The position numbers and the translations under genes were made by a program. A stretch of DNA of 64,000 nucleotides. It comes from Verrucomicrobiota bacterium (GTDB lineage: Bacteria > Verrucomicrobiota > Verrucomicrobiia > Limisphaerales > UBA9464). Positions 1,975-54,128 of the stretch are shown piece by piece. The notes beneath the pieces were generated by a model that saw only the letters and a program-made list of their open reading frames with translations, had not been told where the DNA came from and did not search any database. The number at the start of each line of letters is the position of its first letter. Positions within the stretch are counted from its first letter, which is position 1. The stretch covers positions 23,502-87,501 of the forward strand of contig JAFLEF010000023.1 in the NCBI GenBank assembly GCA_017309115.1, read 5' to 3'.

Positions 1975-3183
1975 ATGCAGCCCAGTATTTTCAGAATGGT
2001 CATCACGGCCGTGGCACTCCTGGCGGGGTGTGGGGTGCGTGCGTGGGGAAATCAGGATCTTCTTCCCTTAATCTTCCGAACCGGCGCGGAGGTCACCCTG
2101 CAACAGGGAGGAATTTCCTTCTCCTATTCGTCAGGATTGGTTCCAGAACGGCTGGAGTTCGCGTTTGGCTTTGCCTCCACAGACGTGGAAGAGGGTGGGT
2201 TCTTTCTGGATTCCGCGAGTTTGCTGCTGCGGCCGTCGGGAGCGGACAGCACGGTGCTGGTGACGGCGGATGTCAGCGGGACGGAATGGGTTCCGCCGAG
2301 TGATCTGGGACCGCCGCCGACGCTGACGCTGGCGATTCAGCCCCGGACATTCCCGGAGGAATGGGGCTCCGGCTACACCACCCGGGTGGCGTACTCGGTG
2401 AGTCTGGAACTGCCCGAAGCCTTCCGGCGTCAGTCGCTGTCGCTCACCCTGCAACTGTTCGACAATGGCGATCGGCGGAACTCCCTCGCCTTCCTGGACG
2501 ACGTGTTGGCAACCCCGGAACCCCCGTTCATCGAACTGCGTTCTTCCGCGTTCCCGTTGGGTCCGTTCGCCCGGGAATGGCTGGCCCGGCATGATCCGGT
2601 CTTGCGCACCTTTCGGATCGATCGGCCGGATCGCGCCCGGTTTTTCTGCCTGCGGTCGGATGCGGCGGTCACCCTGAAGATGCTCTCCCCGGGTCCCGAC
2701 GTGTGTCAGTTCAGTTACACCTTTGCGAGTCCAACGGTGGAACTTTTGGGAGGGGCTTCCGTAGCGGGTCCGTTCGATCTGGTGACGAACGCGGTGATGG
2801 ATCTCACCAACCGGGTGATTCGGGTGCCGGCGAATCAGGCGCAGCGTTACTTCCGGCTGAACGGCAACGTGCGGGCGCGGTTGGTGACGCCGGAATTGGA
2901 AGGGGAAACGTTGGTGTTCCGCTTCGTTTACTCCCCGCCGGTCTTTGCCCTGCAATCCAGCGTGGATGTCTGCGGCCCGTACGCGGACGAGCCGTTGACC
3001 CAATGGGATCCGACGCGGCAGCTCCTGACCGTCCCTCTGGAGGCCGCGCGGTTTTACCGAATTCGTTCCGCCGGCCAGCCGGAGCTGGAAGCCCTGCCGG
3101 TCTACTGGGAGGGCCAATCCCTGGTGATTCCATACCGACCGGTGGCGGCGGGGTTGAACTGGTCGCTGAGCTTGGAACCATGA
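1975..3183 (+). CDS. Lipoprotein of unknown function; its C-terminal half is three tandem ~40-45-aa '...FYR' modules. First gene of the giant operon
   Basis: Signal peptide with lipobox MVITAVALLAGC. Three tandem modules end in RFFCLRS (about 2527-2660), RYFRLNG (2737-2866) and RFYRIRS (2947-3069). The TGA stop at 3181-3183 overlaps the ATG of the next gene at 3180-3182. Confidence 0.75.
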   Translation: MQPSIFRMVITAVALLAGCGVRAWGNQDLLPLIFRTGAEVTLQQGGISFSYSSGLVPERLEFAFGFASTDVEEGGFFLDSASLLLRPSGADSTVLVTADVSGTEWVPPSDLGPPPTLTLAIQPRTFPEEWGSGYTTRVAYSVSLELPEAFRRQSLSLTLQLFDNGDRRNSLAFLDDVLATPEPPFIELRSSAFPLGPFAREWLARHDPVLRTFRIDRPDRARFFCLRSDAAVTLKMLSPGPDVCQFSYTFASPTVELLGGASVAGPFDLVTNAVMDLTNRVIRVPANQAQRYFRLNGNVRARLVTPELEGETLVFRFVYSPPVFALQSSVDVCGPYADEPLTQWDPTRQLLTVPLEAARFYRIRSAGQPELEALPVYWEGQSLVIPYRPVAAGLNWSLSLEP

Positions 3184-6100
3184 GCCCACTTGTTTCCCAA
3201 CTTGGCCGATTCCTTCGGTGTTTCCTTGCGCGAACCTGCTGGTGGCTGGGCTGGCTGCTGGCGGTAGGCGCCGGGGCTCTAACGGCTCGGGCCCAGGAAC
3301 GAACCTTCACGCTTGACGGTGGGAAGGTCGTGCTGACCGACGTTTCGGACCGGGCCACGGTGCTGGTGCGGTCGCTGCGGTATCTGCCCGAACGGCGGGT
3401 CTGGAATGCCAGTCTGCTGGTTCGCAACGCCGGTTCCATCCCGCTCCGCGGACCGATTGTGGTGGTCGCGGAATCGTGGACCGGAACCTCCGGGCCTCGG
3501 CAGACCGACACTTCGGCGGGCAGCGGGGAGCCGGAGTTTTGGCGGGTTAGTCCGGGGCCTTTGGGGACCAACGAGTTGACCGTTCCTCGATTGATCGTCT
3601 TGGGCGCGGAGGGAACGGTGGCGCCTCAGGTTCGCTGGAAGGTCTATGCGGGTCAGGCGCCAGTGGAATCTCCAGGGCTGGGATTCACTCGAACGCTGAC
3701 CGCGACGGGATTGCCGCTGGGCGAGGTCACCGTCACTCAACTCCAGCCTTCAGTTGGACCCGGGCGAGTGACGGAGGCTGAGAGTGGTGTGGTTTCTGTG
3801 AACGGTCCCCCGGGATCCTATCGGCTCCGGTTTGATCGGCCTGGATTCCTCTCGTCCTTTGCCGTGGCGCAACTTTCGGCGGGCGGATTGACGCTGATCC
3901 CCAATCCCCGGCTGACCCCGCGGGATCTGACATCCGTGGAGTTGGCGCCGGGGGCGGTGCTGGCCTCGGCGGACGGGGTGGTGGAACTCACGGTAGATCC
4001 TGGCGCGCCGCCTCCGAATGGACAGCGCGCGACCCTGACCGTGTTCCCGGAGCAGGCGCTGCCGGCTCCGTTGCCGGTGGGCTGGAGTCCGCTGGCGGCC
4101 TGGTCCTGGGAACCCGAGCGGGCCACTGCGGCGCGGGCGCGGGTCCGGCTGGGAGTCCGCGGCGTGGCGGCGGGAACGGTAGTTCCGGTGACGCTGAAGT
4201 CGGACGGGCGGTGGTTGCTCCGGGGTGAAGCCTTGACGGTGGATTCGGCGGGCGTGGTGGTTCTGACCCTGAACGAAAGCGAGCGGGTCGCGGTGGTGGT
4301 GCCGGATGCGGGCGGGTCGTTGCCCGCGGCGGGAACGGAGTTGCCGGCGGGATCAACGCCAGTGCCGACGCCGGATCAGTTGGTGGTGACCAGTCGGGTG
4401 GAACCTCCGGTGGTGGCGGCGAGCACCAACGCCACGTTGGTGACTGCCCAGGCGGAACTTACGGTGAGCAACCGATCCGGTGCGTTGCCCAGCGGAGGCG
4501 TGTTGCGGTTGGAGATTTCGGAACAGTACGAATTGACGGACGGAAGTCGGCGGACCCCACCTCGGTATGAAACCTTCGTTCGGGTGTTCCGTCGTCCGGA
4601 CGCCACGAATGCAGCCGTGGGGTTCGCGACGTTTCCGCTCCGGCCCCTACTGCTGTTCCCGGGCGACCAACTGCAGAGCGCGACCGTGACGGTGGAGGTC
4701 CTCGCTCCGGCGGACTTTGCGGGCGGACGTCTTGTTCCTGGCGGCAGTTACACGAACGGCGGATTTCGGGTCGTGAGTCAGTTGGGAGACTTGGCTGAGC
4801 CTCAGGCGATCCTTCTGGAACCGTTGGGATTGGCTGGCGAAGCCGTTCCTGGGCAACGCGTGCTAACCGACCTGGAATTGACCGGCGGCATTCCCCGAGC
4901 GGCGTTTGAACTGCACCTGGGTGGGGTCACTCCGGGCCGGCGGCTGGGACTTCAGGTCGACCGGGAACTTCCCGACGGCGAATACGTGCTGCTGCAACTG
5001 CGTTCTCGAGGAACGGAGTTGGAACTTCAGCCCCGCGAACGGCTGATCCGGCGCAACGGCGAATTTCAATCGGCCGAAGGTTCGGGCTCGCCGGCGCCGG
5101 GCCTTGCGGGCTCGGGTCAGTTTGTGGTGGTGCAGGTTCCCGGGCCGTTGGAATGGGTGACGGGTCAGGTCGAGGACGCCGGAGCCAGTCGGACGAATCT
5201 GCCGGTCACCGTGACGGGCCAACCCTGGGTGGTGTTCACGGATGCGACCGGTCGGTTTCTGACCCTGGCTCCAGCGGGTTCGGTGGAGGTGGCGGTTCGC
5301 GATTCCGGTTCGGCCCGCAGCGCGTTTCGAACTCTAGCGGTGGTGGCGGGTGTGGCCCCGGCTCCGGTGACGCTGGCCTTGGCTTTGGAAGCGCCGCGGG
5401 TGCTGACGGCGTTTCCGGCGGACGGCGCGGTGGGCGTGGATCGCCTGGTGGCGCCCAAGCTAACGCTGAGCCGTCCGTTGCGGGCCTCGTCGGTGAACGC
5501 GGGAACCGTGGTGCTCCGGGGGACCAATGGCGCCGTGATTCCGGCGCGGATCACCTTGGAGTCCGGGAATACGGTTCTGCGGGTCTACCCTGCGGAACCC
5601 CTCGCCGGCGAAACGCAGTTCACCCTGGAGTTGGCGGCGAGCATTGCGGACGACGCTGGAACGGGCCTGACGGGTCGCCGGCAGTTCTCGTTCGTCACGG
5701 TCAGCACGCCTTGGGTCCGTCCGCCGGGAGCGCAGTTGTATTCGTGGGTGCCGACCAACGGAGTGGCGCGGATCGTCGGGACCGAAGGTCTGGCGCCGCC
5801 GGGATTCCCGGTGATCTTCGTCAACGACACCACTGGGGAAACCGCTACCAGCACGGCGGGTCGGGGAGGGGAGTTCGAGCAAACGATCCCGGCTTGGTTG
5901 GAAGATCGGTTGCGGCTGGTGTTCGTAAATGCGGATGGCACCCGCAGTGAACTGGCGGTGGGTCAGCAGCGGTTCCCGGATGGCAGCGTGGCGTTCTACA
6001 GCGAAGGCGGGACCCTGACGGCGACCAATCTGGCGTCGGAATTACGAGAACTTCGGCTGGAAGTTCCGCCGGGCGCAGTGTCCGGCCGAACCCGGTTCAG

Positions 6101-9100
6101 ACTCGAGCCCCGACCGCTTCTGGACGCCGAAGTCCTCACATCCAACACCCCGCCGGCAGACGCGCAGGCGCTGGGCTTCTTCCGCCTGGAGATTGAGGGC
6201 GATCCGCTGCGGGAACCGGTGCGACTGATCTTCAAGGACCTCGACTTGGATCGGCTCCAACCGCCCGCGGGCCGAACGGTGGACGACATTCCCCTGGTGG
6301 TGGGGGCGCCGACGTGGGTGGACGAAGCGATTGGCGGAACGCCCACCCGAACGTTGGGTTATCGGTATCTGGGACAAGTGGTGCCGCTCACCAACGCGGT
6401 GGCTGCTTCAGGTCGGGTGGGCCGCCAGAGCATTCTGGCGGGAGGCGTGCTGACCTTCGCCGGGAGCGGCAATCTGTCAGCAATGCTGTTCGGCCCGATC
6501 ATCTGGTCCAAGATGGAGGTGGCCGGCAAGGTGTTCTCGGCCGATCTCAGCCAGGGACCGGTGCCGGTGGCGGGCAGCGAAGTGCCCTTGGCCGGAGCAG
6601 TGGTGCGGGGGCGGAGTCGGTCGAATCTGAGTTCGATTCCGTTCTCCCTCCAGCCGGGCGAGATCTACACGCTGAGCGATGCCAATGGCTTTTTCGCATT
6701 TCTGGCGCCGGCGAATTATCAGTCCGGGGCAATCACGCCGTTGTTACAGGGCTACTCGTTGAACGCGACGCATCCGGCGTTCCCGGGGCAGATGGCCGGC
6801 AGTCATGGACGGGCGAGCGTGTATGATCCGTCGCATCCGTTTGGCGGTGGCACCATTCTCTTCGATCGCACCCGACCTGCCGACACCCAGCCCCCGTCGA
6901 TCTTTGCCTCGCACGTTCCGGGATTGCCGGCCGTGTCGGAGCGGATTCGATTCACGGCCACGGCGAGTGATCCGGGCGGGATCGCGAGTCTGGTGGCCCT
7001 GACGGATTCGGTGAATCCGTTCAACGCGGTGGTGAACCTTCGATCGGCGGGTTCGGGGATTTGGGAACTGACGTCCGATCGCCCGGCCAAGGTCGTGCTT
7101 CGGGTGGAAGCGGTGGATGGTTATGGCAACCGGGCGACACGCACGCATGCGATTCTGGTTGGTCAGCCGCCTTCGGCGCCACCGACGGTGAATGATCCTG
7201 CGGGTCCGTTGGTGGTGGGCGCTGAACCGGATGCCGGCGCCCTCGGGGTCAGTCCGGCGACCGTGATTCAGCTGCAGTTCAGCGAGGAGTTGGATGACGG
7301 CATTCGGACCAATGCGGCCTTGTTCCTCACGTTGTCGCCGTCGGCCTGGACGCTCACCAGCGAGTTCGGCCGGAGTCGGCGCGACGTGGTGGTGCGGGTG
7401 CCGGGATTGCGGCCGGACACGGATTACACGCTGACCGTGCAGGGTGTTCGCGATTTGAGCGGTCAGGTGCTCGATCAAAATCCGGCGACGAATTCGCCGG
7501 CCGCCGAACCGTTCGTTTTGAATTTCCGCACCGCTCCGGAGCTGAGCGAAGTGCTGCCAGGAATCACGGAAGGCGGCGGGGCGTTGATTCGGGGAGCGTA
7601 TGCGTTTGTGTTGGATCGGCAGAGGCAGTCGCCCCAGTTGGTGGTGTTTGATATCTCCGTTCCTTCGCGGCCCGTCCGGGTCTACAGCCGTCCGTTGCCG
7701 GGTCCGCCCCGGGCCATGGTGTTGATTCCGGACTATGACTTTGCGACGTCGTTCGTGGACCTCCACCAACCGGATCCGAATCAGCCCGTGGGAATTCGTC
7801 GGGGCAACTTGTTGGCGGTGGCGGGCCAGTTGAGTGGCGCGACCACCAGTTATCTGCGCGTGCTGGATCTCGGGGGTTTGCCCGACGATGTGCCGACTCT
7901 CGCGGGGAATGTGTTGAGTATCGATCCGACGTCCCTGATCACCCGGTTGGATTGGTCGCCACCGTATCTGTTGGCGGTGGAAAACAGCAGCGAGGCGCCT
8001 TCGCTGCATGTGCTGAATTTGCAGGCGGTAATTCTGGGTCAGGCATTGACGGACTTCTCTCGGCAGTTTGCCCGGGCCTATTTACCCGCGCCGCCGGTGA
8101 TCTATCCCGAGCGCGCCGTGCCTGCGGTGGATGCCAATCAGGACGGGGACTTCGTCGATCCGGGCGACTCGTTGCCGGTGCCGGGACTCGACACGGTGGG
8201 CTCGGTGGCGGGCGAGGTGTCGTTGCTGACCCTGATGCCGAACCGCCGAGGAGCCAACGGAGGCGAACTGGTTCTGGTGCGGTCGCCCCGGTTCGTGACT
8301 GACGCGTTTATCGACGGGCCGGCAGGTTACTTGGGAGCGTTGACCACACCGGGGGCGGACACTGTGGTGGAGTTCACCTCGGCGCCGGTGTCGACCAATC
8401 GGGTGGATCATTCCACCGAATTTCGATCGTTCCTGGTCGGTCAGAATCTGTCAGAGACAGCGTCAGTTTCCTTTCCGGAGTTTTATCCGAAACGGGCCGT
8501 GCCGGTGATGGTGTTCGGTCGGCGGTTGGTCCTGGTGAATCTGTTGAGTCTGGACAACCAGACCAATCGGATCTGCGTTCTCGATACGACCCAAGCGGAA
8601 TCACCGGTGAAGTTGGCGGATGTGGATCTGCCGCAGTCCGAGTTCGGCGTGTTGCAGGGCGCGGTGCTCGATGAACGCGGGCGCATCGTGCTTTCGACAG
8701 TGACGACGAACGGGGAGAATTTTGTCCTCCTGGATCCGACGCGCTTCCTGGATCCGGTGGTGCCGGGGGCGATTCATCCGGCGGTGCTCGGCGTGATCCC
8801 GGGCGCGGGTGGCGGAGTGACGTCGTTCGGAGTGATTCCGGGCGGCACAAGTGTGGCGAGCTTGCGCGGGGTAAATGTGGTGGCGCAGACCGCCCCGGTG
8901 ATTCGCTTGGTCCAGGCTACCACCAATTCCCTGTCCGCGTTTGACGAGCCGGATCTGACGAATCGGTTGGCGGAACTGCGTTCCCTGGCGGACGTCGAGT
9001 TCCTGCCGGTGGCGCGTCATGGCACCAATATTTCCGATCTGCTCCCGGCCAATCCCGCTCGACATTTCCATCTGTGGGTGGAGGCGCCGGGTGGGGCTGG

Positions 9101-19700: not shown

Positions 19701-22700
19701 TGTTGAAGGTGTATCAGGCGAATCGCTTTCCGCGGGATCAGTTGGAGGCGCTGGCGGCTTCGCCCGACACGCGCGCGGCTTTGCTGGAGGCGTTCAATGT
19801 CGGCGAGTTCGGTCAGGCGGTGGTGGCGGTGGAGGGGTTGGATCGCGCGGTGTACCAGGACTTAGTTCCGCAGGGAGGCGCGCGGGATCAGAGCGAGCTC
19901 TCCGTGGTCCTGCGGTTTCGCGGTCGGGGAACGGTGACTGGCATCGTGCGCGACGAGCGCGGGGCGCCGTTGTCGGGCGCGGCGGTGAATCTGTTTCCGG
20001 ACACGGATTCCCGCGAGAAGGGCCGGGGAATCCTGAGCGGGCCGGATGGTTCCTTCCGGTTTGACGGTGTGCCGCTGGGTCGCTTTTCGATTGAAGCGTC
20101 CACCGGGGATCAGCGGCTGCGGGTTGTGGATGGTCGCCTAGAGACCTTGGGGCAAACGGTGGATCTGGAGTTGGTTGTGCCGGACACGCGACTCGCGTTT
20201 GGATCGCTGAACGGACAGGTCCTGGAGGCCGACGGGACGCCGCATGCCCAGGCGCGGGTGTACGTGGTGCAGGACCTCAATGCTGGATCTCCGCGGGGCA
20301 TTCTCGCGGAGGCGATCACGGACGAGGACGGCTACTGGCGTGCGGATCGGGTGTTGGCGACCAACCGCGTGGGGGTTGTCGCGCTCTCCCGCGATTCTCA
20401 GCGCAAAGCGGTGCGGGCAGGGGTTCAGCTGAATGTGGACGGCGAAGGCTTCCTGACCCTGGAACTGGAGAGCCTGGCCACGGTTCGCGGAATCGTTCGC
20501 TACGCTGATGGCCAACCCGCGGCGCGGGCGAAGGTCGGCGGAGGCGACGCCGTGGTGCGCACGGATGCGCGGGGCGAGTTTCTGCTGACGGGAGTTCCCG
20601 CGGGTCTGCGTTCCGTGGTGGCGGGTCTGGATGCGCCGGATTCGCGCGATGGCGTCACGCGCCTGACGGGAACCACGCTTACCGTAACGGCGGGTCAGGA
20701 CAACTTCGTCGATCTTCGGCTGCCCGCCCGAGGCAAGATTACGGGCCGCATTCTCAATGTGGCGGGCGAGCCCGTGCCGAACATCCGTGTGGCGATTCCA
20801 ATGGCCGACGGCTTCGCCTGGGTCAACGCCAACACCCGGGGCGAATTCGTCTTCGATGCCTGGCCCATCGGACGCTATATCGTGAGCGCTCCCTCGCCGC
20901 CGGTGAAGGTGAAGCCGGACGAACTAGCGGAGCGTGCCCTGAGTGCGCTTCAGGGAAGTGACGGCCGGAATATGTCCGCCGAGGCCGCCGCCCTGGTCGG
21001 GGAACTGGCGAACATTTATGCGCAGGGCACCATGGGCCGATTCAGTAGTCCGAACTTCGTGCCCACCACCTGGGGCTTCAACGAAGTGGAGCTGTTGAAC
21101 GACGGAGGCACGGCGTTTGTGGAGGTTCAGATGTTGCCCGGCGCGTCGGTCAGCGGAACCGTGGTGAACTCCCAGGGCGTGCCGATTGGCGCGAACGTCA
21201 AGGTGTTCGCCTTTGGCCCGAGCAAGACGGGCGGTCCTCTAGTCGAGGAGCGCGGGGAGATGGTCAGCGATCCGGGTACCGGCGAATTCCGCTTCACCGG
21301 ATTTCTCACCGGGCCGATCCGGCTGGAAGCGACGTCGCCGCTGCTGGTGGGTCGCGCGCAGTATGAAGATTACCTCGAGCCGGAATCTCCCATCCGGACT
21401 GGAGTCACGCTGACGTTCCCGGCCCAGGCGGCGACGACCGGCCGACTGATGGGGCAAGTGACTTCCGCGGAAGGAACGCCGGTCCCGGACGCGGAGGTGG
21501 CGATCAGTTTTTCCTCCGACTACGCGATTCGCACCGACACTAACGGCGTCTTCGACACACAGATTCGCTTGCCGGTCGCCTACTATTTCGTGACGGCGAA
21601 GGCGGACGGCAACGTGGGCCAGACGACGGTTCAATTGGTGGGAGGTATCACTAATTTTGCCGCGGTTCGGTTACTGGGCCGAGGTGATCTGGTGGTGGAG
21701 GTGCAGAATCTGGATGGAACCCCGGCGACGGGGGCGGAGGTGAAAGTCGTCGGCTGGGATTTTCCGCGGGAAGAATACTCGTTTGAGAGCGTCGATGGTT
21801 TCGGTCGGCGGACGTTGATGGGATTGGCCGAAGGTGAGTATGTGCTGGAGGCTAAGCAACTGACCGGCACTTTGGTGGAGTTCGTACGCGGAGCAGTGAA
21901 GGTGAGTCGGGGTCAGGAGTCCCGGGTTCAACTGCGGTTTGGTCCAACGGGTTCGGTGCGGGGACAGTTTGTGGAACGACTCACGCAGGTGCCGATCTCT
22001 GGTGCGCAGGTGTGGTTGCGGAATCCTGCCGGCTTGGCGGTGGCCAGTGCTCCGACCGGGGCGGATGGTCGGTTCGAACTGACGTCGTTGCCGTTGGCAA
22101 CGTATCAGCTGGTCTCGCGAAATCCGGTGAACGGCCGGCTTGGTTCGGCGACGGTGGCGGTAACTCCCGAGAATTCTGCGCCATCGGTGGTGTTGGTGGA
22201 ACAGGCCCTTGGGGAAGTACGGGGTATCGTGAGAGATTCGTCGGGAACCAATCCGGCGGTGGGAGTCCGGGTCACGTTGAGTCCTACCGATCGGCTGTTT
22301 GAAAGCCGGCAGGTGACGACTGGGCCGGACGGGGAGTTTCAGTTTCCGGGCGTTCCATTGGGCTCCTTTGAGGTTCAGGCCGTCCTGGGGCTGGCGGGTC
22401 CGCAATCCCGGGCGCAGGCCCTGCTCGCCTCCGAGACCGAACCTTTGATTCTCGATTTGGCCTTACCGCTGACGGGTAGTCTCGACATCACAGTTCTGCG
22501 TCCGGACGGGGTTTCACCCGCCACCAACGCCTCCGTGGTGCTGCGGTTGTTTGACGGGCCCCGACGATTTGATACGGACGCGCAGGGCCGCGTGCGGTTT
22601 GGGGACGTGCCTCTGGGCAACTGGACGGTGCGGGCGAATTCCGAGGTGCCAGGCGAAACCCGGAGTCAGGCGGTTAGGGATGTTGCCCTCAGTTTGGAAC

Positions 22701-25700
22701 GGCGGCAGATCCCGCTCACTCTGGTGTTGCCTGGAGTGGGTCGGGTGCAGGGCGAGGTGCGCAATAGCGACAACTCAATTCCCACATCCGCGGTGCGCCT
22801 GGATGTGCGGTTCCTGACAGTCGGGGGTGGCGGCGATACGGTGACGGTGCTGACGGATTCCTCGGGTCGGTTCGCGGTGCCGGATGCCCGGCTCGGGGAC
22901 TTCAGTGTGACCGCTTCCCTGAACGCGCTGGCGGCAACTGCCGGCGGGCGGTTGGACGCGGATGGCGACGTGGAGTCGGTGACCTTGCGACTTGCCGCCA
23001 ACGGGGTGGTGAGCGGACGATTGCTCAGCGCCACCGGAGCCGAACTGCGTGGGGCGGACATTTTGCTGACGTTCCCGTCCCAGACCGCCTTCCCCGGGCG
23101 GGTGCTAGTGCGGACCGATGCTCAAGCGGAGTTTCGCGCCGAAGGCGTTCCGATTGGTGTTCCCGTGGTGGTGACGGCGAATGTCGCTTCGCTGAACGGA
23201 CTCCTGCGCCGGACGGTGCGCTTGACGCAGGACGGTCAGGTGCTGGCGTTGGGCGATCTGCGGCTTGATGAGGAACCGCCCACCGTGGTGCAGATTCTGC
23301 CGCCGGACGGTTCGATGGAGTTTCTGGAAACGGAATCCGTGCGGGTGGATTTCAGTGAGGCGCTGGATCCGGACAGCGTGACCCCGGAGGCCCTTTATCT
23401 CGTGCAAGGCACCAACCGGGTGGCGAGCGATGTGACGCTGGAGAGTTTGGCGACGGGATCGCGGGTTGTGTTGCAACCAGACGAACCCCTGGCCAGCGCG
23501 ACGCAGTACTCTGTGGTTGTTCTCGGCGGGAATCGGGTGGGACCCAACGGCCAGTTGTTGCGGACGGGCGTGAAGGACGGCGTGGATCGGTTGCTGGTGG
23601 AGACCGTCACGTCCTCCTTCACCACTCGGGACTTCCTTCCGCCCGGCCTTCTGTCGGCGTTCCCGGCGGATGAGGCCGTCGAGATTGATCCTCAAGCGGT
23701 GGTTCGGTTGGAGTTCGATGAAGCGGTTCGCACGAACGGCTATCAGGTGGTGGTGCGCGGGCCGGCGGGTCCGATTCCGGGTGAGTCGCAGGTCAGTGCC
23801 AGTCGGCGGTTGGTGGTGTTCAGTCCCGCGGTGGAGTTGCCGGTCAACGCCCGGTTCACCGTGGAGGTCAGCGGAGTTCGCGATGCTGCGGGGAATGTAA
23901 CCCCCAACTTCACCAACCGCTTCACCACGCTCGACACGTTGGCGCCGGCGGTGGCGAATTTGCGACTGGCGGCGGGTCAGCGCGCGGTGGCGGGAGCCAC
24001 GGTGTTGGTTGAGGCGGTGTTGGATTCGACCGAAACGAATGCCGCGGTCCGCTTCAAGCTCGATGGCGTGGAGGTCGGCGTGGCCCTGATCGGACCGGTG
24101 TTCCGCTGGCCGGTGCGGCTGCCCGGTTCCGGGACGGCGGTGGTTTCCGCCACGGGTCTGGATTCCCGCGGCAACTCCGGCAGCGAAGCCGAGTTGATCC
24201 TGCCCTTGGTCGCCAACGATGCGCCCTCGGTGGCTTTGCGGCGCGGTCCGCTGGAATCAGGTCCGGTGCGTACCGGACGATCCTTCAGCGTGGTGGTCGA
24301 AGCGACCGATGATGCCCGTGTGGCGGGAACCGTGCTGACTCTGACGGGAGCCCTGACCAATCGCTGGGAACTGGGCGGTGGGACCAACACCGTGGTGGTG
24401 ACCCTGCCGGCGGAAGCGGTGTCCGGGCCGGCATTTGAGTTTCGCGCCACGGCCTTCGATGAACTCGGGGCGCGTTCGACGGAAGCGCTTCTCGCGGTTC
24501 CCACCACGGATGCAACGCTCCCGGGACTCGTCTGGAACGGGCCGCCGGCGGGAACCCGGTTGGATCCGCGGAATCCGTTCCCGTTGGACTTGGAAGTTCG
24601 GGACAACAGCGGGGCAGTGAACGTGCAGTCCACGCTGAGGTATCGAAACGGAGTTCTCACGAATCTGACCGCATCCGTCGTGCTCGTGCCCAATGTTTCC
24701 CAGTCGGTGCGACTGGAGGCGAATCTGGCGGGGGCGGAGGACGGCGGAACGTTGGAGGTGGATCTGACGGTGACGGATGCCGCCGGAAACGTCGCGCGCC
24801 AATCGCTCAGCTATTCGGTGCGGGGTGTGCGTGGTCCCAAGCTGGTGCAGATTCGCAACTCGGCCGGCACGTTGCTGCCAACGACCAACGTCGTTTCACC
24901 GTGGATCTCGTTTTTGATTTTCGACTTCGACCGGTCACTGGCGCCGACGAATTTGGTGGATCAGTTGGTCCTGACCAATGACCTGGGCGAACCCATCGCG
25001 TTCACGCCGGTCCTGACGGCGAATACGATCCAGTGTCAGCTCAATGGAGCTTCCCTGCCGCCCGGATCGGAAGTGACGGCCATTCTGCGACCCGGACTGA
25101 CCGATGCCAGTGGCAATGAAACGCAACTCGCCGACGGCCGAGCGTTTCCGCCCGAGGGAGTCAGCGTGACGTTCCCCGTGGCGCGGTTCTTGGGTTTGAA
25201 ACCGGATTCCGGCCGAAGGGTGGTTCCTGGGCAGACGCTGGTGTTGGACTTGACCCAGGATCGCGCTCTGGATCTGGTTGAAGTGCGCCTGAATGGTGAA
25301 CGGATGCCGGTGCGAACCGTGAATGGTGAGGTTCACCGGTATCCAGCACGGTTGTCGGAGCAGGCGACCAACGCTCAGGTCACGGTGATCACGGTCCAAC
25401 CGGGCCGGCCGCCGCGACTGCTGGCGCAAGCGGATTATGTGGTCGTGCCGCGAGACGGGGATTCCGATGGGGACGGGCTGCCCAATGGTTGGGAGGCGGA
25501 CCGTTCTTTCGTGAACGATGCGATTCGTTTCGATCCCGCGGATCCAGCGGACGCCCGGGCCAACTTTGACTCGGACGCCTTGGATAATCTGACGGAGTTC
25601 CAGTTGGGCACCGATCCCTTCCGGGTGGACACCGATGGTGACGGTCTCTGGGACCATCAGGAGTCGCTGGAACCGAATGGCTGTCCGAGTCCGCTGGTGG

Positions 25701-28700
25701 CCGACAGCGATGGCGATGGTACCAATGACCGGTTTGATTTTGATGCGTGTGATCCCCAGGAGAGTCTGACGGTGAGTCCCCTGGCGCTCACCGTTTCGGA
25801 GGGAACCGCCACGACCAACGCCCTGACCCTGCGTCTGGTGAATCTGGGTTCCCCGTCCCTCCGGTTCGACCCGGCGTTCCCGCGACCAGACTGGGCCCAG
25901 TTGCTCGACTCCAGTTCGCCCAACACCAACGTGTCCACCTGGCGACTGCGCCTGGGTCCTTCCTTCAGTGACGCCGGAGATTACTCCCTGCGCTTGCGGG
26001 CGACGGCGTCCCGGGCTTTGGGACAGGTGGAGTTTCCGGTGGAAGTGTTGGTTCGGGTGCAGAATGTGACCAACGTTCCGGTGACCCGCTGGCGTTCACC
26101 GGTCAGTGGTCGGTGGCAGGATGCCTCCGCGTGGAGCGACGGGGTTCCGGATGTGGGACGTCAGGCCGTCATTGACGTTCCCGGGACCTACACCGTCTCG
26201 GTGGATGTCGGCGGGCTGGCGTCGGGATTGCAGGTGGGCGGACCGGGCGCAGCGGTGACGCTGAATCTGGTGTCGGGGACCCTAACGCTGAACGACGACG
26301 CCACGATTCATCCCGGTTCGGTGCTGCGGAGTCAGAATGGTGGCTTGGACGGGCAGGGTGATCTTCGCGTGGCGGGTCGAATGGAGTGGTCGACCAGCGC
26401 GTTGGCCGGATCCGGACGCCTCCTGATTGAACCTGGTGGCGAGATGGAGACGCGGTCGGGCACGCTGTCGCTCTTCCGTTCGTTGGAAAATGCGGGAACG
26501 CTGCGGTTGGCGGACGGACTCACCCTGTGGCTGGAAGGATCCACCCTGACGAATCGCGGCGATCTGTTGCTGGAGAACTCGGGTCAGATTTGGTTCCGCA
26601 GTTCGTTGAACCGCGAGCAGGTGGTGAATGAAGGACGGATGCAGAAGACCGGGGCCGGCGAGTTCACTCTGAACAGCCTGCCATTCCATCAGCACGGGCG
26701 TCTGGAAGTGATGGCCGGAACACTGACGAGCACGGGCGGGGGCGTGCACAGCACCACCAATGTCCTGCCGGCGGGCGCGACGTTGCGGTTGGGCGGACGG
26801 AATCCGGCCAGTCCATTGGTGTGGACTCCGGAGAGTGCGTGGTCGGGGGCGGGACGTTTCGAGTTCGTGGGGTCTAGCAATCTGGTGCTCGGCTCGTTTC
26901 AGCCCACTGGTCTGGTGGAGTTCGCGGCCACCTCCACCCGGCTGGCGCGTTCGATCGTTCCTCCCTTGGCAGCCACGTTCAGCTTTGGGCTAACGCACTT
27001 CGCACAGGATCAGGTGCTGACCAATAGCGTCGCCTCGGCGTCGAGCACGATCCTGACGGACGGCGAGTTGAGCGTGGTGGGCCGCTTGCAGTCGGCGTCA
27101 GGAACGTTTGGGGGAACCGGTCGGTTGCGGATTGCGCCCGGGGGCAGTTGGGTCGTGAACGGGGATTCGATTGTGCAGTTGTCCTGTCAGGTGGAAAACG
27201 AGGGAGCGGTCGAAATTCTGGACGGCGGCGATCTGCGGCTGAATGGCGTGACGCTCGTCAATCGCGGGGAGTTCACCACCCGAGGTGAGGCGACGATCTG
27301 GTGGCAGACGGTCTTCGCGGAAAACCGATTCGAGAACGAGGGACGGTTCCGTCAGTTGGGCGGCGGACAGGTCTCCTTCCGCCTGGTTCCCTTCCATCAT
27401 CGCGGCGAATTAGAACTCACCGGAAGCCTGTTCCTGGACGAGGGGGGCGCCAACCACAGTCGCCTCGAAGTGCCAGCCGGAGTGACGCTCGTCCTGGGGG
27501 ATTCGATGGAATACGGGGCAGGTTCGTTTCTGGGGGGGGCGGGAACGATTCGGTTCGATCAGGGCAATCACATCTTGTCGGGCGGGTTTGAGCCGACGGG
27601 TTCGGTGATCTGGAATGGCGGAACGGTAACGGTGAACGAGACCCCAGCGTCCCCGTATGCGGCTTCCTTCAACTCCGGTCGGTCCGTTTTCGGCGCTCCA
27701 CAGCGGCTGCGCAGTGCCTCCTTTGCCGGCGCGACGGTCGAGGGAGCCGATCTCGAGGTGGAGGGAGATCTCCAATTGCGGTCCGGGGCTCTGCTGGGGC
27801 CGGGTCGGGTGACCACGACCACCAATTCCACGGTGCGCGTGGAGAGTTCGGTGCGCACGACCCTTTCCACGCTCGGGCGGACGCTCCTGACGCGGGGTCC
27901 GGTATTGTGTGCCACCAACGCCTGGGTGCGGTTTCAAGGAGGACGCTGGGAGAACGAAAGTCGCTTTGAAGTGCCGGCGGGCCTCCGTCTGGACTCCTTC
28001 GGGGGAACCAACGGATTTGTGAATCGGGGGGTGTTCGAGCAAAGCGGATCCAACACAGTGGAGATCACGGGCGTGGCGGTGGAGAACACCGGACCCTGGC
28101 TGCTGACGGGCGGTTCGCTGACCCTGGCCGGCGGCGGCACCAACTCGGTTCCCTGGAACATTCCGGCAGGAATGCCGTTGTCGCTCGGGGGACGTTGGCT
28201 CCAGTTGGCTCCGCTCACCGCCCGTGGTCCGGTTCAGTTCACGGCGGGAGTTCAGCAGTGGAACGCGCCCTTCCAAAATGTCGGAAGTCTGCGCGTCGAT
28301 TCCGGTGCCGAAGTCTTCTGGACCGCGGGACTGACCAACGACGGCTCGGTGACGGTGCTGGGCACGATGGTCGCCGGAACGCCGTCGTTGGTTCGGCAGA
28401 TGATCCTGCAGCAAGGCGAGCTCCGGGCCGAGGCGCCGTTGACGATTACCGAAGAGTTTCGGTGGCTCTCCGGGACCCTTGCCGGAGCGGGCGGAGTTCA
28501 TTTGGCCGCCACCGGTTTGGGCGAAGTCAGTGGCAACGGACTGGCCAGCCTTCGCGGTCTGTTCTCCAGCGCGGGCACCGTTACCCTCACCAACACCGCG
28601 TCGGTCCAGTTCCGTAATGGCACTTGGAGGAATGAACCCTCCGGCACGGTGATCCTGCGCAGTTCTGGAAGTTTCCTGGGATTTGGTTCGACCACCAATC

Positions 28701-29560
28701 GCCTGCTAAACCAGGGACGTTGGGTCAAGGAAACGGGCACGACGCTGGAGATTACCGGGGGCGTGGAGGTGGAGCAGACCGGCGCGTGGGAGGTGCAGGC
28801 GGGTCTGCTGAGAGTGGCGTCACCGGCGCGCTGGCAAGGTGAAGTGACCGTGGCCGCGGGCGCCGCGTTGGAACTGGGTTCGGGTCGGCAGACCTTCGGT
28901 CCGGATTTGAGTTTGAGCGGCAGTGGTCGGCTGGCGTTCTTGGCGAATTCCAACGTGGAGTTGGCCCAGGAGCTCAACCTGGGTCGCTTGTTGGTGGAGT
29001 TTGGTCCCTCGGTGGATGTCCTGGGTGAGTTGACGCTGCGCAATGACGCGGGTGGGGTGATGGCCTTCAGCACGGCGAATACGGTGAGTGGACCGCTGGT
29101 GGTCGGGGGCAGAATGACGGTGGTCGCGACGGCGACGGGCAATTTCAATGCGCTCAAGTTGGACGATACCCTGACCCTGTTGTCGGGAGGTCGGTTGGAG
29201 AACTCCGGGGAGATTCGCCTTCGGGAGTTTGTGGATCAGGGCGGCGTGGTGGTGGGCAATGCGCCAGTGATCCGGACGGTCGGGCCGTTGCGCATTGAGC
29301 AGATTGTGGTGCTGCCCGCAATTGGATCCTCCGTGAGCCGGGCGGAGGCGGAGGGTGCCCAAGCCGGACCCGGCCCGCAGGTGGTGGTCCGCTGGGCGGG
29401 GGAAGCAGACGGCACCTATGCCGTGGAGTTCAGTTCGGATCTGCGGAACTGGGAGCCCTTGCGATGGTCCATCCGCCGGACGGAACCGGATCGTTTCGAG
29501 GCCTCGGGCGAAGCGGGCTTAGGTTCGGGCTTCTACCGGGTGGTTTCTGTTGGCGAGTGA
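16721..29560 (+). CDS. Giant secreted multi-domain surface-protein candidate (4,279 aa). Order: signal peptide, ~900-aa unknown N-terminal region, about a dozen CarboxypepD_reg-like domains, Ig-like domains, TSP3-like Ca-binding repeats, four large beta-helix-type repeats, C-terminal '...FYRV' module
   Basis: ATG 16721-16723 overlaps the TGA 16722-16724 of the RHS gene. The N-terminus MNSFPLPLAWPLRVLLAVLTACSVVAAASL is signal-like. The frame is uninterrupted for 12.8 kb, with the domain patterns listed in the sub-features. Confidence 0.9.
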   Translation: MNSFPLPLAWPLRVLLAVLTACSVVAAASLSTFDLRVVGTQLRVSPTTLTVPKNVAGSVAVEFVRGDGTIVSDLSASLAGSRIKAVLRGPAFAAQELSGPADRPLILPALRLPGDYVLEDLQLVDNATGLSRFPVTPESIPVRVVDEILVSRVTSRPLDLEEIREKGIVIDEANFRAVEFEVTLVLKGRTFPVVLPVVAPRFQESTEIIPRAELEERLAHAERLNRELAGLVELPEDVQVEMPDFQIQPMNFEEVPLGEEEKKVGIPITGLLVIPGNVGFLNQFFSVQLYTENAAPSGSGLAVNQLEARLVLPPGRDGVLSPNPFQNPGDDPLRPARVGSEGAVRTLLPVVQLGPDGLPGTADDLSRLQPGETGTAEFLIEGLREGLHLLDLQLEGNLEGLAAGVTRIRGRASGSVLVRNANFSLTFSHPQTVRADEPYEATVTLLNTSDFTANLVSVSLRRNSVSGAVLLSEESAELGNLAPGQSATATFRFRSQRTGSVIFSNLSTSDDNVKGRLSFSMGVDERGVGLNPDAIGYPDPVTRLPNELRHAVNRVLGQALGVATAARLPAGVLPVRRATVTQRVIELAEAGQRVELGDPSRRVYTDLLLDWLGGRTASEGFDQILRETEAGREWRAALAAVIESADNENAVERSVSRAADLAGLGQAWWLAASSDSRITVAVVEGDLRATPELSKIPGSVSLAGGRGGWALTSPNTGRQLEWIVRSNLTSAQVSWLRLDTNGTGELLIWSLSTLTEGTVLSFDPGTGGTELTLQSGPNRTQLTAARKPIAELPPQILSVRQNLNVLTDRMWNRCPIRDYANWGTVVGVLYSKPMSELAAEPAAYRLTGTLGVRTAQLQPGRRIVYLQLHRALAGFPQRPQEYPLTVSSVADPRGNRLATDTRLVETKAAKGTTIRGLVLGIDGQPAAGVPVTLTMADRVGDRCLVSEVRAAQVFTDDTGRFTLDFVLADVAFTVAALDVRALGGTNLDFLVSQLLKVYQANRFPRDQLEALAASPDTRAALLEAFNVGEFGQAVVAVEGLDRAVYQDLVPQGGARDQSELSVVLRFRGRGTVTGIVRDERGAPLSGAAVNLFPDTDSREKGRGILSGPDGSFRFDGVPLGRFSIEASTGDQRLRVVDGRLETLGQTVDLELVVPDTRLAFGSLNGQVLEADGTPHAQARVYVVQDLNAGSPRGILAEAITDEDGYWRADRVLATNRVGVVALSRDSQRKAVRAGVQLNVDGEGFLTLELESLATVRGIVRYADGQPAARAKVGGGDAVVRTDARGEFLLTGVPAGLRSVVAGLDAPDSRDGVTRLTGTTLTVTAGQDNFVDLRLPARGKITGRILNVAGEPVPNIRVAIPMADGFAWVNANTRGEFVFDAWPIGRYIVSAPSPPVKVKPDELAERALSALQGSDGRNMSAEAAALVGELANIYAQGTMGRFSSPNFVPTTWGFNEVELLNDGGTAFVEVQMLPGASVSGTVVNSQGVPIGANVKVFAFGPSKTGGPLVEERGEMVSDPGTGEFRFTGFLTGPIRLEATSPLLVGRAQYEDYLEPESPIRTGVTLTFPAQAATTGRLMGQVTSAEGTPVPDAEVAISFSSDYAIRTDTNGVFDTQIRLPVAYYFVTAKADGNVGQTTVQLVGGITNFAAVRLLGRGDLVVEVQNLDGTPATGAEVKVVGWDFPREEYSFESVDGFGRRTLMGLAEGEYVLEAKQLTGTLVEFVRGAVKVSRGQESRVQLRFGPTGSVRGQFVERLTQVPISGAQVWLRNPAGLAVASAPTGADGRFELTSLPLATYQLVSRNPVNGRLGSATVAVTPENSAPSVVLVEQALGEVRGIVRDSSGTNPAVGVRVTLSPTDRLFESRQVTTGPDGEFQFPGVPLGSFEVQAVLGLAGPQSRAQALLASETEPLILDLALPLTGSLDITVLRPDGVSPATNASVVLRLFDGPRRFDTDAQGRVRFGDVPLGNWTVRANSEVPGETRSQAVRDVALSLERRQIPLTLVLPGVGRVQGEVRNSDNSIPTSAVRLDVRFLTVGGGGDTVTVLTDSSGRFAVPDARLGDFSVTASLNALAATAGGRLDADGDVESVTLRLAANGVVSGRLLSATGAELRGADILLTFPSQTAFPGRVLVRTDAQAEFRAEGVPIGVPVVVTANVASLNGLLRRTVRLTQDGQVLALGDLRLDEEPPTVVQILPPDGSMEFLETESVRVDFSEALDPDSVTPEALYLVQGTNRVASDVTLESLATGSRVVLQPDEPLASATQYSVVVLGGNRVGPNGQLLRTGVKDGVDRLLVETVTSSFTTRDFLPPGLLSAFPADEAVEIDPQAVVRLEFDEAVRTNGYQVVVRGPAGPIPGESQVSASRRLVVFSPAVELPVNARFTVEVSGVRDAAGNVTPNFTNRFTTLDTLAPAVANLRLAAGQRAVAGATVLVEAVLDSTETNAAVRFKLDGVEVGVALIGPVFRWPVRLPGSGTAVVSATGLDSRGNSGSEAELILPLVANDAPSVALRRGPLESGPVRTGRSFSVVVEATDDARVAGTVLTLTGALTNRWELGGGTNTVVVTLPAEAVSGPAFEFRATAFDELGARSTEALLAVPTTDATLPGLVWNGPPAGTRLDPRNPFPLDLEVRDNSGAVNVQSTLRYRNGVLTNLTASVVLVPNVSQSVRLEANLAGAEDGGTLEVDLTVTDAAGNVARQSLSYSVRGVRGPKLVQIRNSAGTLLPTTNVVSPWISFLIFDFDRSLAPTNLVDQLVLTNDLGEPIAFTPVLTANTIQCQLNGASLPPGSEVTAILRPGLTDASGNETQLADGRAFPPEGVSVTFPVARFLGLKPDSGRRVVPGQTLVLDLTQDRALDLVEVRLNGERMPVRTVNGEVHRYPARLSEQATNAQVTVITVQPGRPPRLLAQADYVVVPRDGDSDGDGLPNGWEADRSFVNDAIRFDPADPADARANFDSDALDNLTEFQLGTDPFRVDTDGDGLWDHQESLEPNGCPSPLVADSDGDGTNDRFDFDACDPQESLTVSPLALTVSEGTATTNALTLRLVNLGSPSLRFDPAFPRPDWAQLLDSSSPNTNVSTWRLRLGPSFSDAGDYSLRLRATASRALGQVEFPVEVLVRVQNVTNVPVTRWRSPVSGRWQDASAWSDGVPDVGRQAVIDVPGTYTVSVDVGGLASGLQVGGPGAAVTLNLVSGTLTLNDDATIHPGSVLRSQNGGLDGQGDLRVAGRMEWSTSALAGSGRLLIEPGGEMETRSGTLSLFRSLENAGTLRLADGLTLWLEGSTLTNRGDLLLENSGQIWFRSSLNREQVVNEGRMQKTGAGEFTLNSLPFHQHGRLEVMAGTLTSTGGGVHSTTNVLPAGATLRLGGRNPASPLVWTPESAWSGAGRFEFVGSSNLVLGSFQPTGLVEFAATSTRLARSIVPPLAATFSFGLTHFAQDQVLTNSVASASSTILTDGELSVVGRLQSASGTFGGTGRLRIAPGGSWVVNGDSIVQLSCQVENEGAVEILDGGDLRLNGVTLVNRGEFTTRGEATIWWQTVFAENRFENEGRFRQLGGGQVSFRLVPFHHRGELELTGSLFLDEGGANHSRLEVPAGVTLVLGDSMEYGAGSFLGGAGTIRFDQGNHILSGGFEPTGSVIWNGGTVTVNETPASPYAASFNSGRSVFGAPQRLRSASFAGATVEGADLEVEGDLQLRSGALLGPGRVTTTTNSTVRVESSVRTTLSTLGRTLLTRGPVLCATNAWVRFQGGRWENESRFEVPAGLRLDSFGGTNGFVNRGVFEQSGSNTVEITGVAVENTGPWLLTGGSLTLAGGGTNSVPWNIPAGMPLSLGGRWLQLAPLTARGPVQFTAGVQQWNAPFQNVGSLRVDSGAEVFWTAGLTNDGSVTVLGTMVAGTPSLVRQMILQQGELRAEAPLTITEEFRWLSGTLAGAGGVHLAATGLGEVSGNGLASLRGLFSSAGTVTLTNTASVQFRNGTWRNEPSGTVILRSSGSFLGFGSTTNRLLNQGRWVKETGTTLEITGGVEVEQTGAWEVQAGLLRVASPARWQGEVTVAAGAALELGSGRQTFGPDLSLSGSGRLAFLANSNVELAQELNLGRLLVEFGPSVDVLGELTLRNDAGGVMAFSTANTVSGPLVVGGRMTVVATATGNFNALKLDDTLTLLSGGRLENSGEIRLREFVDQGGVVVGNAPVIRTVGPLRIEQIVVLPAIGSSVSRAEAEGAQAGPGPQVVVRWAGEADGTYAVEFSSDLRNWEPLRWSIRRTEPDRFEASGEAGLGSGFYRVVSVGE
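19450..23200 (+). repeat. Tandem array of about 12-14 carboxypeptidase-regulatory-like (prealbumin/transthyretin-fold) domains
   Basis: Repeating pattern G.v.G.V.d..G.P..gA.V.l.......TD..G.F.f..vP.G.y.v.A. Examples: GTVTGIVRDERGAPLSGAAVNLFPD...GPDGSFRFDGVPLGRFSIEAS; GEVRGIVRDSSGTNPAVGVRVTL...TGPDGEFQFPGVPLGSFEVQA; GSVRGQFVERLTQVPISGAQVWL...GADGRFELTSLPLATYQLVS. Confidence 0.75.
23275..23947 (+). other. Two consecutive SbsA_Ig/Big_5-like Ig domains
   Basis: PPTVVQILPPDGSMEFLETESVRVDFSEALDPDSVTPEALYLVQG...ATQYSVVVLG and LLSAFPADEAVEIDPQAVVRLEFDEAVRTNGYQVVVRG...ARFTVEVSGVRDAAGNV. Confidence 0.6.
25453..25756 (+). repeat. Thrombospondin type-3-like Ca-binding repeats (D-x-D-x-D-G)
   Basis: DGDSDGDGLPNGWE, FDSDALDNLTEFQLGTDP, DTDGDGLWDHQE, DSDGDGTNDRFDFDACDP. 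Confidence 0.7.
26321..28900 (+). repeat. Four degenerate ~230-250-aa tandem repeats, G/T/N/L-rich (beta-helix / autotransporter-associated beta-strand-like). A possible partial fifth unit extends to about 29270
   Basis: Unit starts are near 26321, 27080, 27764 and 28451. Alignable cores: VVNEGRMQKTGAGEFTLNSLPFHQHGRLEVMAGTLT...VLPAGATLRLGG / FENEGRFRQLGGGQVSFRLVPFHHRGELELTGSLFL...EVPAGVTLVLGD / FVNRGVFEQSGSNTVEITGVAVENTGPWLLTGGSLTL...NIPAGMPLSLGG / LLNQGRWVKETGTTLEITGGVEVEQTGAWEVQAGLLRV...TVAAGAALELGS. Confidence 0.7.
29377..29557 (+). other. C-terminal '...FYRV' module of the giant protein
   Basis: PQVVVRWAGEADGTYAVEFSSDLRNWEPLRWSIRRTEPDRFEASGEAGLGSGFYRVVSVGE. It follows the same pattern as the modules at 2527-3069, 44328-44538 and 47113-47320. 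Confidence 0.6.
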
Positions 29561-31923: not shown

Positions 31924-31956
31924 GTAGGTTGGCAGATGAAAGGTGGGACGTGAGAA

Positions 31957-33489: not shown

Positions 33490-33514
33490 CGGCCGCCATG
33501 CTAGGCGGACTCTT

Positions 33515-33557
33515 GTTTTAGACGACTACAGCCATTAAAACCCGGACGTTAGTTTTA
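33515..33557. promoter_or_regulatory. Candidate LysR-type operator in the 78-bp dabB / lysR divergent intergenic region: three GTTTTA/TAAAAC half-sites
   Basis: GTTTTA at 33515-33520, TAAAAC at 33536-33541 and GTTTTA at 33552-33557. These form two overlapping inverted repeats (spacers of 15 and 10 nt) in the only AT-rich patch between the divergent start codons. Confidence 0.4.
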
Positions 33558-33567
33558 TTTAACGCCA

Positions 33568-36428: not shown

Positions 36429-36490
36429 GGAAAGCGGTTGGGTCGTAAGGGAACCATGGGGAGCCAAGGGAACCGAGCGAAAAGCCGGGC

Positions 36491-44541: not shown

Positions 44542-44629
44542 GTGAGGTTCGGTAAAGCCTACCCGGTCACGGTCACAAACGGTGTGACGTTGGACAGCGT
44601 TTCCCGAAGTAACCGATAGAACGGATGAT

Positions 44630-54127: not shown

Positions 54128-54128
54128 T

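Follow-up and report, generated by a model that had tools for sequence, protein, structure and literature searches.

A 64,000-nucleotide (nt) stretch of the Verrucomicrobiota bacterium contig JAFLEF010000023.1, referred to here as the window, contains three same-strand open reading frames (ORFs) of 402, 4514 and 4279 amino acids (aa), which were named S, A (an RHS protein) and B (a repeat protein), respectively. Both ATGA stop/start overlaps that the original prediction had described were found in the sequence, at 3180-3183 (S/A) and 16721-16724 (A/B), and the span of 27,586 nt amounts to 43.1% of the window, in agreement with the 43% claimed. For A, the length was counted from its ATG (position 3180); upstream of this, the frame stays open back to 2703. 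Because of their length and their hundreds of homologues, the three ORFs are not chance readings; they form a tightly packed gene set that is predicted to be partly translationally coupled. Comparison with related loci indicated that the conserved unit is the A-B pair, which is widespread in Verrucomicrobiota.

All three products begin with an N-terminal export signal, as had been claimed from the same strings: a lipobox LLAGC with Cys19 in S, WWLGWLLAVGAGALTARA followed by QE in A, and LLAVLTACSVVAAA followed by S in B. The start of A reads as a typical Sec signal (...GAGALTARA/QE), that of B ends in ...LTACSVVAAA/S, and the A and B homologues from other genomes likewise have signal-peptide-like N-termini. 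Pfam confirmed that no PAAR, VgrG, Hcp, Tc (TcA-like) or TpsB gene is present among the window ORFs scanned, those outside the operon being housekeeping or unrelated genes. No small ORF lies 3' of the operon, where the convergent dabA gene overlaps the 3' end of B by 28 nt. Promoter and terminator scans at both operon ends were uninformative.

The A protein is a carrier composed of a scaffold, an RHS capsule and a C-terminal domain (Table 1). Comparable signal peptides occur in its homologues, where a conserved ERTF.L.GG.V.L motif comes next. Within the scaffold, a weak CarboxypepD_reg domain was detected at residues 660-733 and Big_5 domains at residues 737-840 and ~1341-1385. Permissive-threshold Pfam searches of the unannotated parts of A and B added only a weak, non-significant LVIVD-type match (E = 0.17) at scaffold residues ~1470-1500, a possible propeller-like region before the plug. 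The capsule has the make-up of a complete RHS protein with plug, shell and core: a DUF6531 plug (PF20148) at residues 2237-2304 (E = 6e-12), 11 stretches of RHS_repeat (PF05593, E = 1.5e-85, with TIGR01643 matching as well), and the Rhs-associated core TIGR03696 at residues 3979-4058, ending in NPLRYVDPTG/Y. Self-cleavage at the end of the core is predicted from the PxxxxDPxG motif located there. The shell matched the solved type VI secretion system (T6SS) Rhs cores 8h8a, 7q97, 8qjb and Tse5 8cp6, with E values down to 5e-29, and its YD repeats are continuous, leaving no propeller-size gap between plug and shell. The Pfam and NCBIfam scan thus bore out the domains previously named for both A and B.

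The B protein consists largely of repeated domains arranged behind a conserved N-terminal region. Two Big_5 domains were identified, and the TSP3-type repeats follow a DxDxDG/DxDGDG pattern. The four ~230-aa repeats have a high content of Gly, Thr, Asn and Leu, in a pattern that resembles a beta-helix; they had no match in Pfam or PDB, and neither the C-terminus of B nor the scaffold of A matched PDB sequences. Identity to homologues falls from 57% in the N-terminus (to the related locus L008) to 24-29% in the C-terminal repeats, a gradient in keeping with one conserved end for assembly and one exposed end that evolves fast. An AlphaFold2 (AF2) model of residues 1-900 (mean predicted local distance difference test score, pLDDT, 79.6) contained several beta-sandwiches, then a six-helix bundle at 539-662 and one more beta-sandwich. 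Foldseek matched this model to TEP1, C3, C5, alpha-2-macroglobulin, transglutaminase C-terminal domains and mastigoneme proteins, all with template modelling (TM) scores of ~0.1, and these matches reflect generic multi-sandwich similarity. A relationship to alpha-2-macroglobulin/TEP proteins was rejected: the Foldseek E value was ~1e-7 but the TM score only ~0.1, the helical bundle spans only ~125 aa, and the CxEQ thioester motif is absent.

Table 1 Features of the S-A-B locus, with positions in the window
Feature	Residues	Position (nt)	Strand	Evidence
Gene S, 402-aa exported accessory, predicted lipoprotein in the source organism		1975..3183	+	ORF call, sequence
S signal peptide and lipobox LLAG/C19		1975-2031	+	Sequence
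S N-terminal beta-sandwich (jelly-roll-like)	~30-181	2062..2517	+	Alignment, AF2 model
S three ~45-aa repeat modules	184-229, 252-298, 322-367	2524..3075	+	Alignment, module HMM
Gene A, 4514-aa exported carrier (scaffold, RHS capsule, C-terminal domain)		3180..16724	+	ORF call, Pfam, NCBIfam
A signal peptide (...LTARA/QE)	1-38	3180..3293	+	Read from sequence
A conserved scaffold	~39-2100	3294..9479	+	Pfam; tblastn to related loci
A RHS/YD capsule	2230-4058	9867..15353	+	Pfam, NCBIfam, PDB-structure matches
A orphan 456-aa C-terminal domain, presumed encapsulated cargo	4059-4514	15354..16721	+	Composition, null searches
A Gly/Ala-rich small-xxx-small segment	121-215 of the C-terminal domain	15714-15998	+	Composition
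Gene B, 4279-aa exported fibre-like protein	signal peptide 1-28	16721..29560	+	ORF call, Pfam
B N-terminal conserved region	~30-880	16808..19360	+	Homologues, AF2 model
B CarboxypepD_reg (transthyretin-like) array	~900-2150	19421..23170	+	Pfam E = 2.5e-64, internal repeats
B Big_5 and other Ig-like domains; three TSP3-type calcium-binding repeats	2183-2403 and beyond; 2914-3006	23267..25696	+	Pfam
B four tandem ~230-aa repeats, C-terminal third	3205-4082	26333..28966	+	Self-comparison

The distribution of the gene set was traced through B. A protein search with its N-terminal 900 aa as the query returned 78 homologues, and a profile of the B N-terminus, run against one genome per GTDB species, returned 276 relatives, of which the best 80 loci were analysed. 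These 80 were almost all from Verrucomicrobiota metagenome-assembled genomes, including Limisphaerales, Verrucomicrobiales, Puniceicoccaceae, Luteolibacter and Haloferula, together with one Myxococcota-labelled bin. For adjacency, the loci whose upstream flank reached 3 kb or more were scored, the criterion being a same-strand ORF of at least 800 aa that ends no more than 200 nt from the start of B. By this measure, A was adjacent to B in 51 of 63 loci, with a gap of at most 60 nt in 44 loci and the window-type 4-nt overlap in 12. The other 12 of the 63 mostly had a frameshifted A, an A at a longer gap, or one gene for a ~320-aa secreted protein between A and B. When segments of A were compared by tblastn, the same-strand gene just 5' of the B homologues matched the pre-RHS 2200 aa of the window A in almost all loci with enough flank. 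The claim that the three products act together was thereby upheld as to linkage, since the A-B order is kept and S stands beside A or B wherever its context is visible, and given up as to S being part of the core, since S belongs to a rare, clade-restricted family.

Further small genes accompany some of these pairs. In several modules, some of the RHS and some of the lipase type, the gene directly 3' of B encodes a conserved ~400-aa secreted protein rich in Gly (L042 19955-21160, L079 19848-21056, L063 20363-21565, and also L047, L052, L060 and L061); the window has none. Modules of the Puniceicoccaceae and Haloferula type (L080 195-9886, L070 and L086) carry an A without an RHS shell and other accessories, namely a 213-236-aa PEP-CTERM protein whose gene is coupled to the start of A and, between A and B, a secreted protein of 320-365 aa, with a DUF6268 protein further upstream in L080 and L070. 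In the Myxococcota-labelled bin (L077, OZ245817.1), the B N-terminus is 48% identical to that of the window, as close as many Verrucomicrobiota copies, so this module reflects either transfer or mis-binning. Loci titled Akkermansia muciniphila, Bifidobacterium, Enterobacteriaceae and Cyanophyceae look like mislabelled bins.

Homology to the window A typically stops near residues 1880-2100, and the part downstream differs from locus to locus. The RHS shell was detected in 31 of 55 upstream proteins by a hidden Markov model (HMM) built on the window shell, to which Pfam added four (~35 loci). An LCAT/PGAP1-like alpha/beta-hydrolase (lipase) is the payload in 13 loci, usually with PKD (present in 11 loci), and in ~7 loci A is short (~2350-2650 aa) and carries no payload. 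The A family is therefore best described, on these alignments, as a conserved all-beta scaffold of ~2100 aa with an exchangeable C-terminal payload, for which the RHS capsule is one option and not the core of the system. The Limisphaerales chromosome OZ260084.1 encodes three A-B modules with different payloads: an LCAT-like lipase (L020), an RHS shell with a Peptidase_C39 C-terminal domain (L048), and a payload that was non-RHS in the scans (L061). A cassette exchange at the scaffold/payload border is directly visible between the window and L010: the two are 41-46% identical in scaffold residues 1300-2100 but 59-81% identical across the shell and the C-terminal domain, with only 29-56% identity in B. 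This jump was not seen in L008, L011 or L048.

The C-terminal domain of the window A consists of a charged helical part, the Gly/Ala-rich segment and a unique domain of ~240 aa. Searches of Pfam, PDB sequences and a word index of 5.8 billion proteins returned nothing, and a HMMER run against all 1.84 billion representatives matched only the helical and Gly/Ala part, and weakly; its relatives are near-identical copies and the 72%-identical domain of L010. The Gly/Ala-rich segment is common to the window, L008 and L011, whose C-terminal domains otherwise differ. A membrane-active role of this segment, as a glycine zipper or pore, is only a weakly backed suggestion, because its hydropathy lies below transmembrane level. 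Across the related loci, 28 RHS-bearing A proteins had a canonical core end (...NPxxxRDPxG), followed by C-terminal domains of ~250-470 aa. An all-against-all comparison placed these 28 domains in 17 unrelated clusters, and one of the 21 that were scanned belonged to a Pfam family (Peptidase_C39). This pattern supports the view that the RHS C-terminal domains vary in the manner of toxin domains.

An immunity gene would be expected directly downstream of such a cargo, and the original prediction had noted that there was none. In the window, B starts inside the stop codon of A, leaving no room for one, and nothing follows B either. With a gap of at most 60 nt in 44 of the 51 adjacent pairs, a linked immunity gene is generally missing in the related loci as well. 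Its absence is thus the rule, because B directly follows A in the window and in most loci.

Gene S showed a much narrower distribution. It had no match in Pfam or NCBIfam, and its homologues numbered nine among 5.8 billion proteins, together with two metagenome loci. The N-terminal domain is marked by the conserved motifs LEFxFGF, FLDSxSL and DLFDN...SLAFLD in the family alignment, and the repeat modules follow the pattern LQSS..GPYADE...RFYRIRS. Its AF2 model (mean pLDDT 68) was all-beta and showed a jelly-roll-like domain at the N-terminus besides three small modules, and Foldseek with this model returned only jelly-roll and lectin matches, all non-significant. S precedes A in L001-L005 and L088, whereas it follows B in L089, overlapping the end of B; it adjoins A or B in every contig with visible context. 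The window S has a canonical lipobox, [LVI][ASTVI][GAS]C, at the end of its signal peptide. The lipobox Cys is confined to this protein and its 88%-identical relative, being absent or non-canonical in seven of the nine family members, so lipidation is not a conserved trait of the family. An outer-membrane lipoprotein anchor had been proposed as a part of the system; with so rare a gene and so restricted a Cys, S is better regarded as a lineage-specific accessory. Two possible relationships of S were rejected. A module in common with the C-terminal 'FYRV' domain of B is not supported, as an HMM of the S modules matched S-family proteins only. The small proteins at equivalent positions in Puniceicoccaceae (a 213-aa PEP-CTERM protein and a 320-aa protein) were not related to S by BLASTP, which found nothing, or by hhalign (E = 0.068, probability 0.8%); a short resemblance in the final strands, '...NSLAFLDDV..PEP', may serve as a lead only.

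Among known systems, A is most like the RHS proteins that are exported through Sec. The original prediction had started from the premise that RHS proteins depend on a T6SS, TcA or WapA-type delivery context, which was too narrow: RHS toxins with Sec signals and without dedicated machinery are a described class that has been recorded in Verrucomicrobia (Zhang et al. 2012, PMC3482391), and a Sec-type class is also represented by the bacterial teneurin-like proteins (TLPs), Sec-targeted and presumably surface-exposed YD-shell toxins whose delivery machinery is stated to be unknown (Raoelijaona et al. 2026, PMC13018210). The former, termed type II secretion system ('T2SS-class') toxins, share with A the signal peptide, RHS repeats, self-cleaving core and highly variable C-terminal domain, but they have linked immunity genes, no giant partner and no 2100-aa scaffold shared with non-RHS paralogues (PMC3482391). 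TLPs share with A the Sec targeting, N-terminal adhesion modules, FN-plug/DUF6531, YD shell and polymorphic C-terminal domain. However, TLPs have an NHL propeller between plug and shell, for which A shows no match and has no room; the C-terminal domain of A is ~3 times larger, and A is paired with B. TLP operons almost always have a downstream immunity gene, which A lacks, and the six TLP phyla exclude Verrucomicrobiota (PMC13018210). A was therefore not assigned to the TLPs, in spite of its plug and shell, for want of the propeller and the downstream immunity gene.

The pair also resembles other systems in part. Like A and B, Tc (ABC) toxins combine an RHS cocoon with cleaved cargo and a very large partner in the same operon, and they need no immunity gene because their targets are eukaryotic; A-B is likewise without one. 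In contrast to Tc toxins, A has no SpvB domain, TcdB-mid domain or propeller insertion, both A and B have signal peptides, and B is an all-beta Sec-exported repeat protein with none of the features of TcA, an alpha-helical pore former; a Tc toxin was rejected on these grounds. T6SS Rhs effectors (Tse5, RhsA and Tse15) have a homologous shell and core, and Tse5 demonstrates that pore-forming cargo can be carried by an Rhs protein (PMC10684867), whereas A begins with a Sec signal and lacks PAAR, prePAAR, VgrG context and an immunity gene; with no PAAR, prePAAR, VgrG or Hcp Pfam match in A or its neighbours in the window, this assignment was rejected too. CdiA/CdiB systems of contact-dependent inhibition (CDI) share with A-B a giant exoprotein, a conserved N-terminal body, an exchangeable C-terminal effector, a conserved partner and several divergent copies per genome. 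They differ in their two-partner secretion (TPS) domain, filamentous haemagglutinin (FHA) repeats, Omp85-type CdiB and cdiI-type immunity, none of which was found, and the partner B is fibre-like; a CDI or two-partner secretion system was rejected in the absence of a TPS, FHA or TpsB match in the three proteins or the scanned window ORFs. A literature search found no description of the A-B pairing, of a shared scaffold with alternative payloads, or of a systematic lack of immunity genes.

We place the module among the Sec-dependent RHS and polymorphic effector systems, with a real chance that it constitutes a new delivery platform. We give about even credence to reading it as a Sec-exported, surface-displayed platform for variable effectors, with A and B as the core and S as an accessory here. 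In such a platform, S, A and B would be transcribed together with coupled translation, and all three products would be exported via Sec. A and B would use their conserved parts to assemble at the cell surface, with B as a long tether or adhesin of immunoglobulin (Ig)-like and transthyretin-like domains and A presenting the payload, while S, lipid-anchored in the source organism, would aid the attachment or assembly of the complex. The cargo would be cut at the DPxG motif within the capsule and released onto non-self cells, and the producer would be protected by export and encapsulation and not by a cognate immunity protein. The surface fibre formed by B, the anchoring by S and the contact-dependent delivery, which the original prediction had also envisaged, are steps that we infer. 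A bolder form of this proposal, which we regard as possible though somewhat improbable, is that A-B with variable small accessories represents an undescribed, nearly phylum-wide Sec-dependent platform for effector display or delivery. Here, B would be the missing delivery or tether machinery for surface RHS toxins and other payloads, and the platform would work without cognate immunity, for example by targeting eukaryotic grazers or unrelated bacteria.

Several observations weigh against a surface effector platform of this kind. No beta-barrel, type IX secretion system (T9SS) or PEP-CTERM signal that would indicate a route across the outer membrane was found in the proteins. Large parts of A and B lack any family or structural match. 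The C-terminal domain of the window A has no detectable toxin fold, and its hydropathy stays below transmembrane level (maximum Kyte-Doolittle 1.1). An antibacterial polymorphic toxin without a linked immunity gene would be unusual, and the cargo could be something other than a toxin. S is missing from most lineages, with unrelated small proteins in its place. Moreover, a distant B-like gene (37% identity) lies without A upstream in a 5.7-Mb contig (L007 10001-14191). That gene appears split into several ORFs and may be a decayed copy.

That neither the window nor most other loci have an immunity gene linked to the pair would accord with a role of the module in attachment or feeding. A and B would then work as giant adhesins or exoenzymes on the surface and bind to particles, algae or polymers; the payloads would act on substrates, and the RHS shell would only protect or store a secreted enzyme. 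The main alternative payload, a lipase/acyltransferase with PKD, is typical of exoenzymes, and B is built of the adhesin-type domains CarboxypepD_reg, Big_5 and TSP3. Large Sec-secreted proteins with RHS, TSP3 and CglD-like regions have also been noted in the Planctomycetes-Verrucomicrobia-Chlamydiae (PVC) group and read as catabolic or adhesive (PMC12057145). Nevertheless, an enzyme should be conserved or recognisable, whereas 20 of the 21 scanned C-terminal domains have no Pfam family, and Pfam detected no carbohydrate-active domain in either A or B. The extreme variability of the domains after a canonical self-cleavage motif (17 clusters among 28) is toxin-like, and shell and C-terminal domain are swapped together as a cassette. 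We thus consider a feeding function unlikely.

A and B could also be independent surface proteins that are merely co-transcribed and form no complex, A alone being a TLP-like or Sec-type RHS toxin. Sec-dependent RHS toxins have been described as working without known partners (PMC3482391, PMC13018210), and the L007 lineage has a B-like gene on its own. Set against this, the adjacency, the order and often the 4-nt overlap are kept over dozens of species at 45-57% identity and with three payload classes, and genomes with several copies duplicated the pair and not single genes (L020, L048 and L061). Such persistent linkage is hard to explain without a joint function, which makes independence distinctly unlikely. 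Finally, a classical antibacterial RHS effector with its delivery system (for example, a T6SS with a cognate VgrG) and immunity gene elsewhere in the genome would accord with the resemblance of the RHS core to solved T6SS Rhs cores and with the view of only a window of the source genome, but is very improbable given the cleavable Sec signal and the 2200-aa extracytoplasmic-type N-terminal region in place of PAAR or prePAAR, the need of variable C-terminal domains for tightly linked immunity genes, of which the surveyed loci generally have none, and a conserved neighbour that is B and not a T6SS gene.

If a surface effector platform is the correct reading, it bears on how Sec-dependent RHS toxins at the surface reach their targets, which is stated to be an open question (PMC13018210) and for which B, kept beside A in dozens of species and with three payload classes, is a concrete candidate partner. 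The same scaffold with an RHS capsule, with a lipase or with nothing constitutes a natural experiment, and the rule that variable RHS cargo is accompanied by a linked immunity gene is challenged. Modules of this kind are common in Verrucomicrobiota, each copy taking up ~27 kb and a genome having as many as three, and they may shape the interactions of these little-studied bacteria with their neighbours. Verrucomicrobiota are abundant in soil, freshwater and gut.

The genes flanking the operon in the window are of ordinary types. Upstream lie a radical-SAM CofH/MqnC-like gene and a TauE gene. Downstream, the minus strand encodes a dabA/dabB inorganic-carbon pump with a divergently transcribed LysR regulator (29533-34482), followed by a cluster (35268-38916, minus strand) that codes for a P450-like protein, an ADP-ribosylglycohydrolase and an APH-type kinase. 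ADP-ribosylglycohydrolases can serve as immunity proteins against ADP-ribosylating toxins; nothing ties the one in this cluster to the RHS cargo. Two more large exported proteins are encoded on the plus strand (39484-47350): a 1685-aa subtilase with Peptidase_S8, a fervidolysin-type prodomain, PD40 repeats and a TSP3_bac repeat, and then a 906-aa protein in which Laminin_G_3 and DUF6851 are combined with a vanadium-chloroperoxidase-like helical domain. Further downstream (53228-58019, minus strand), a 1296-aa hybrid histidine kinase with a Y_Y_Y domain is encoded beside a LuxR-type response regulator.

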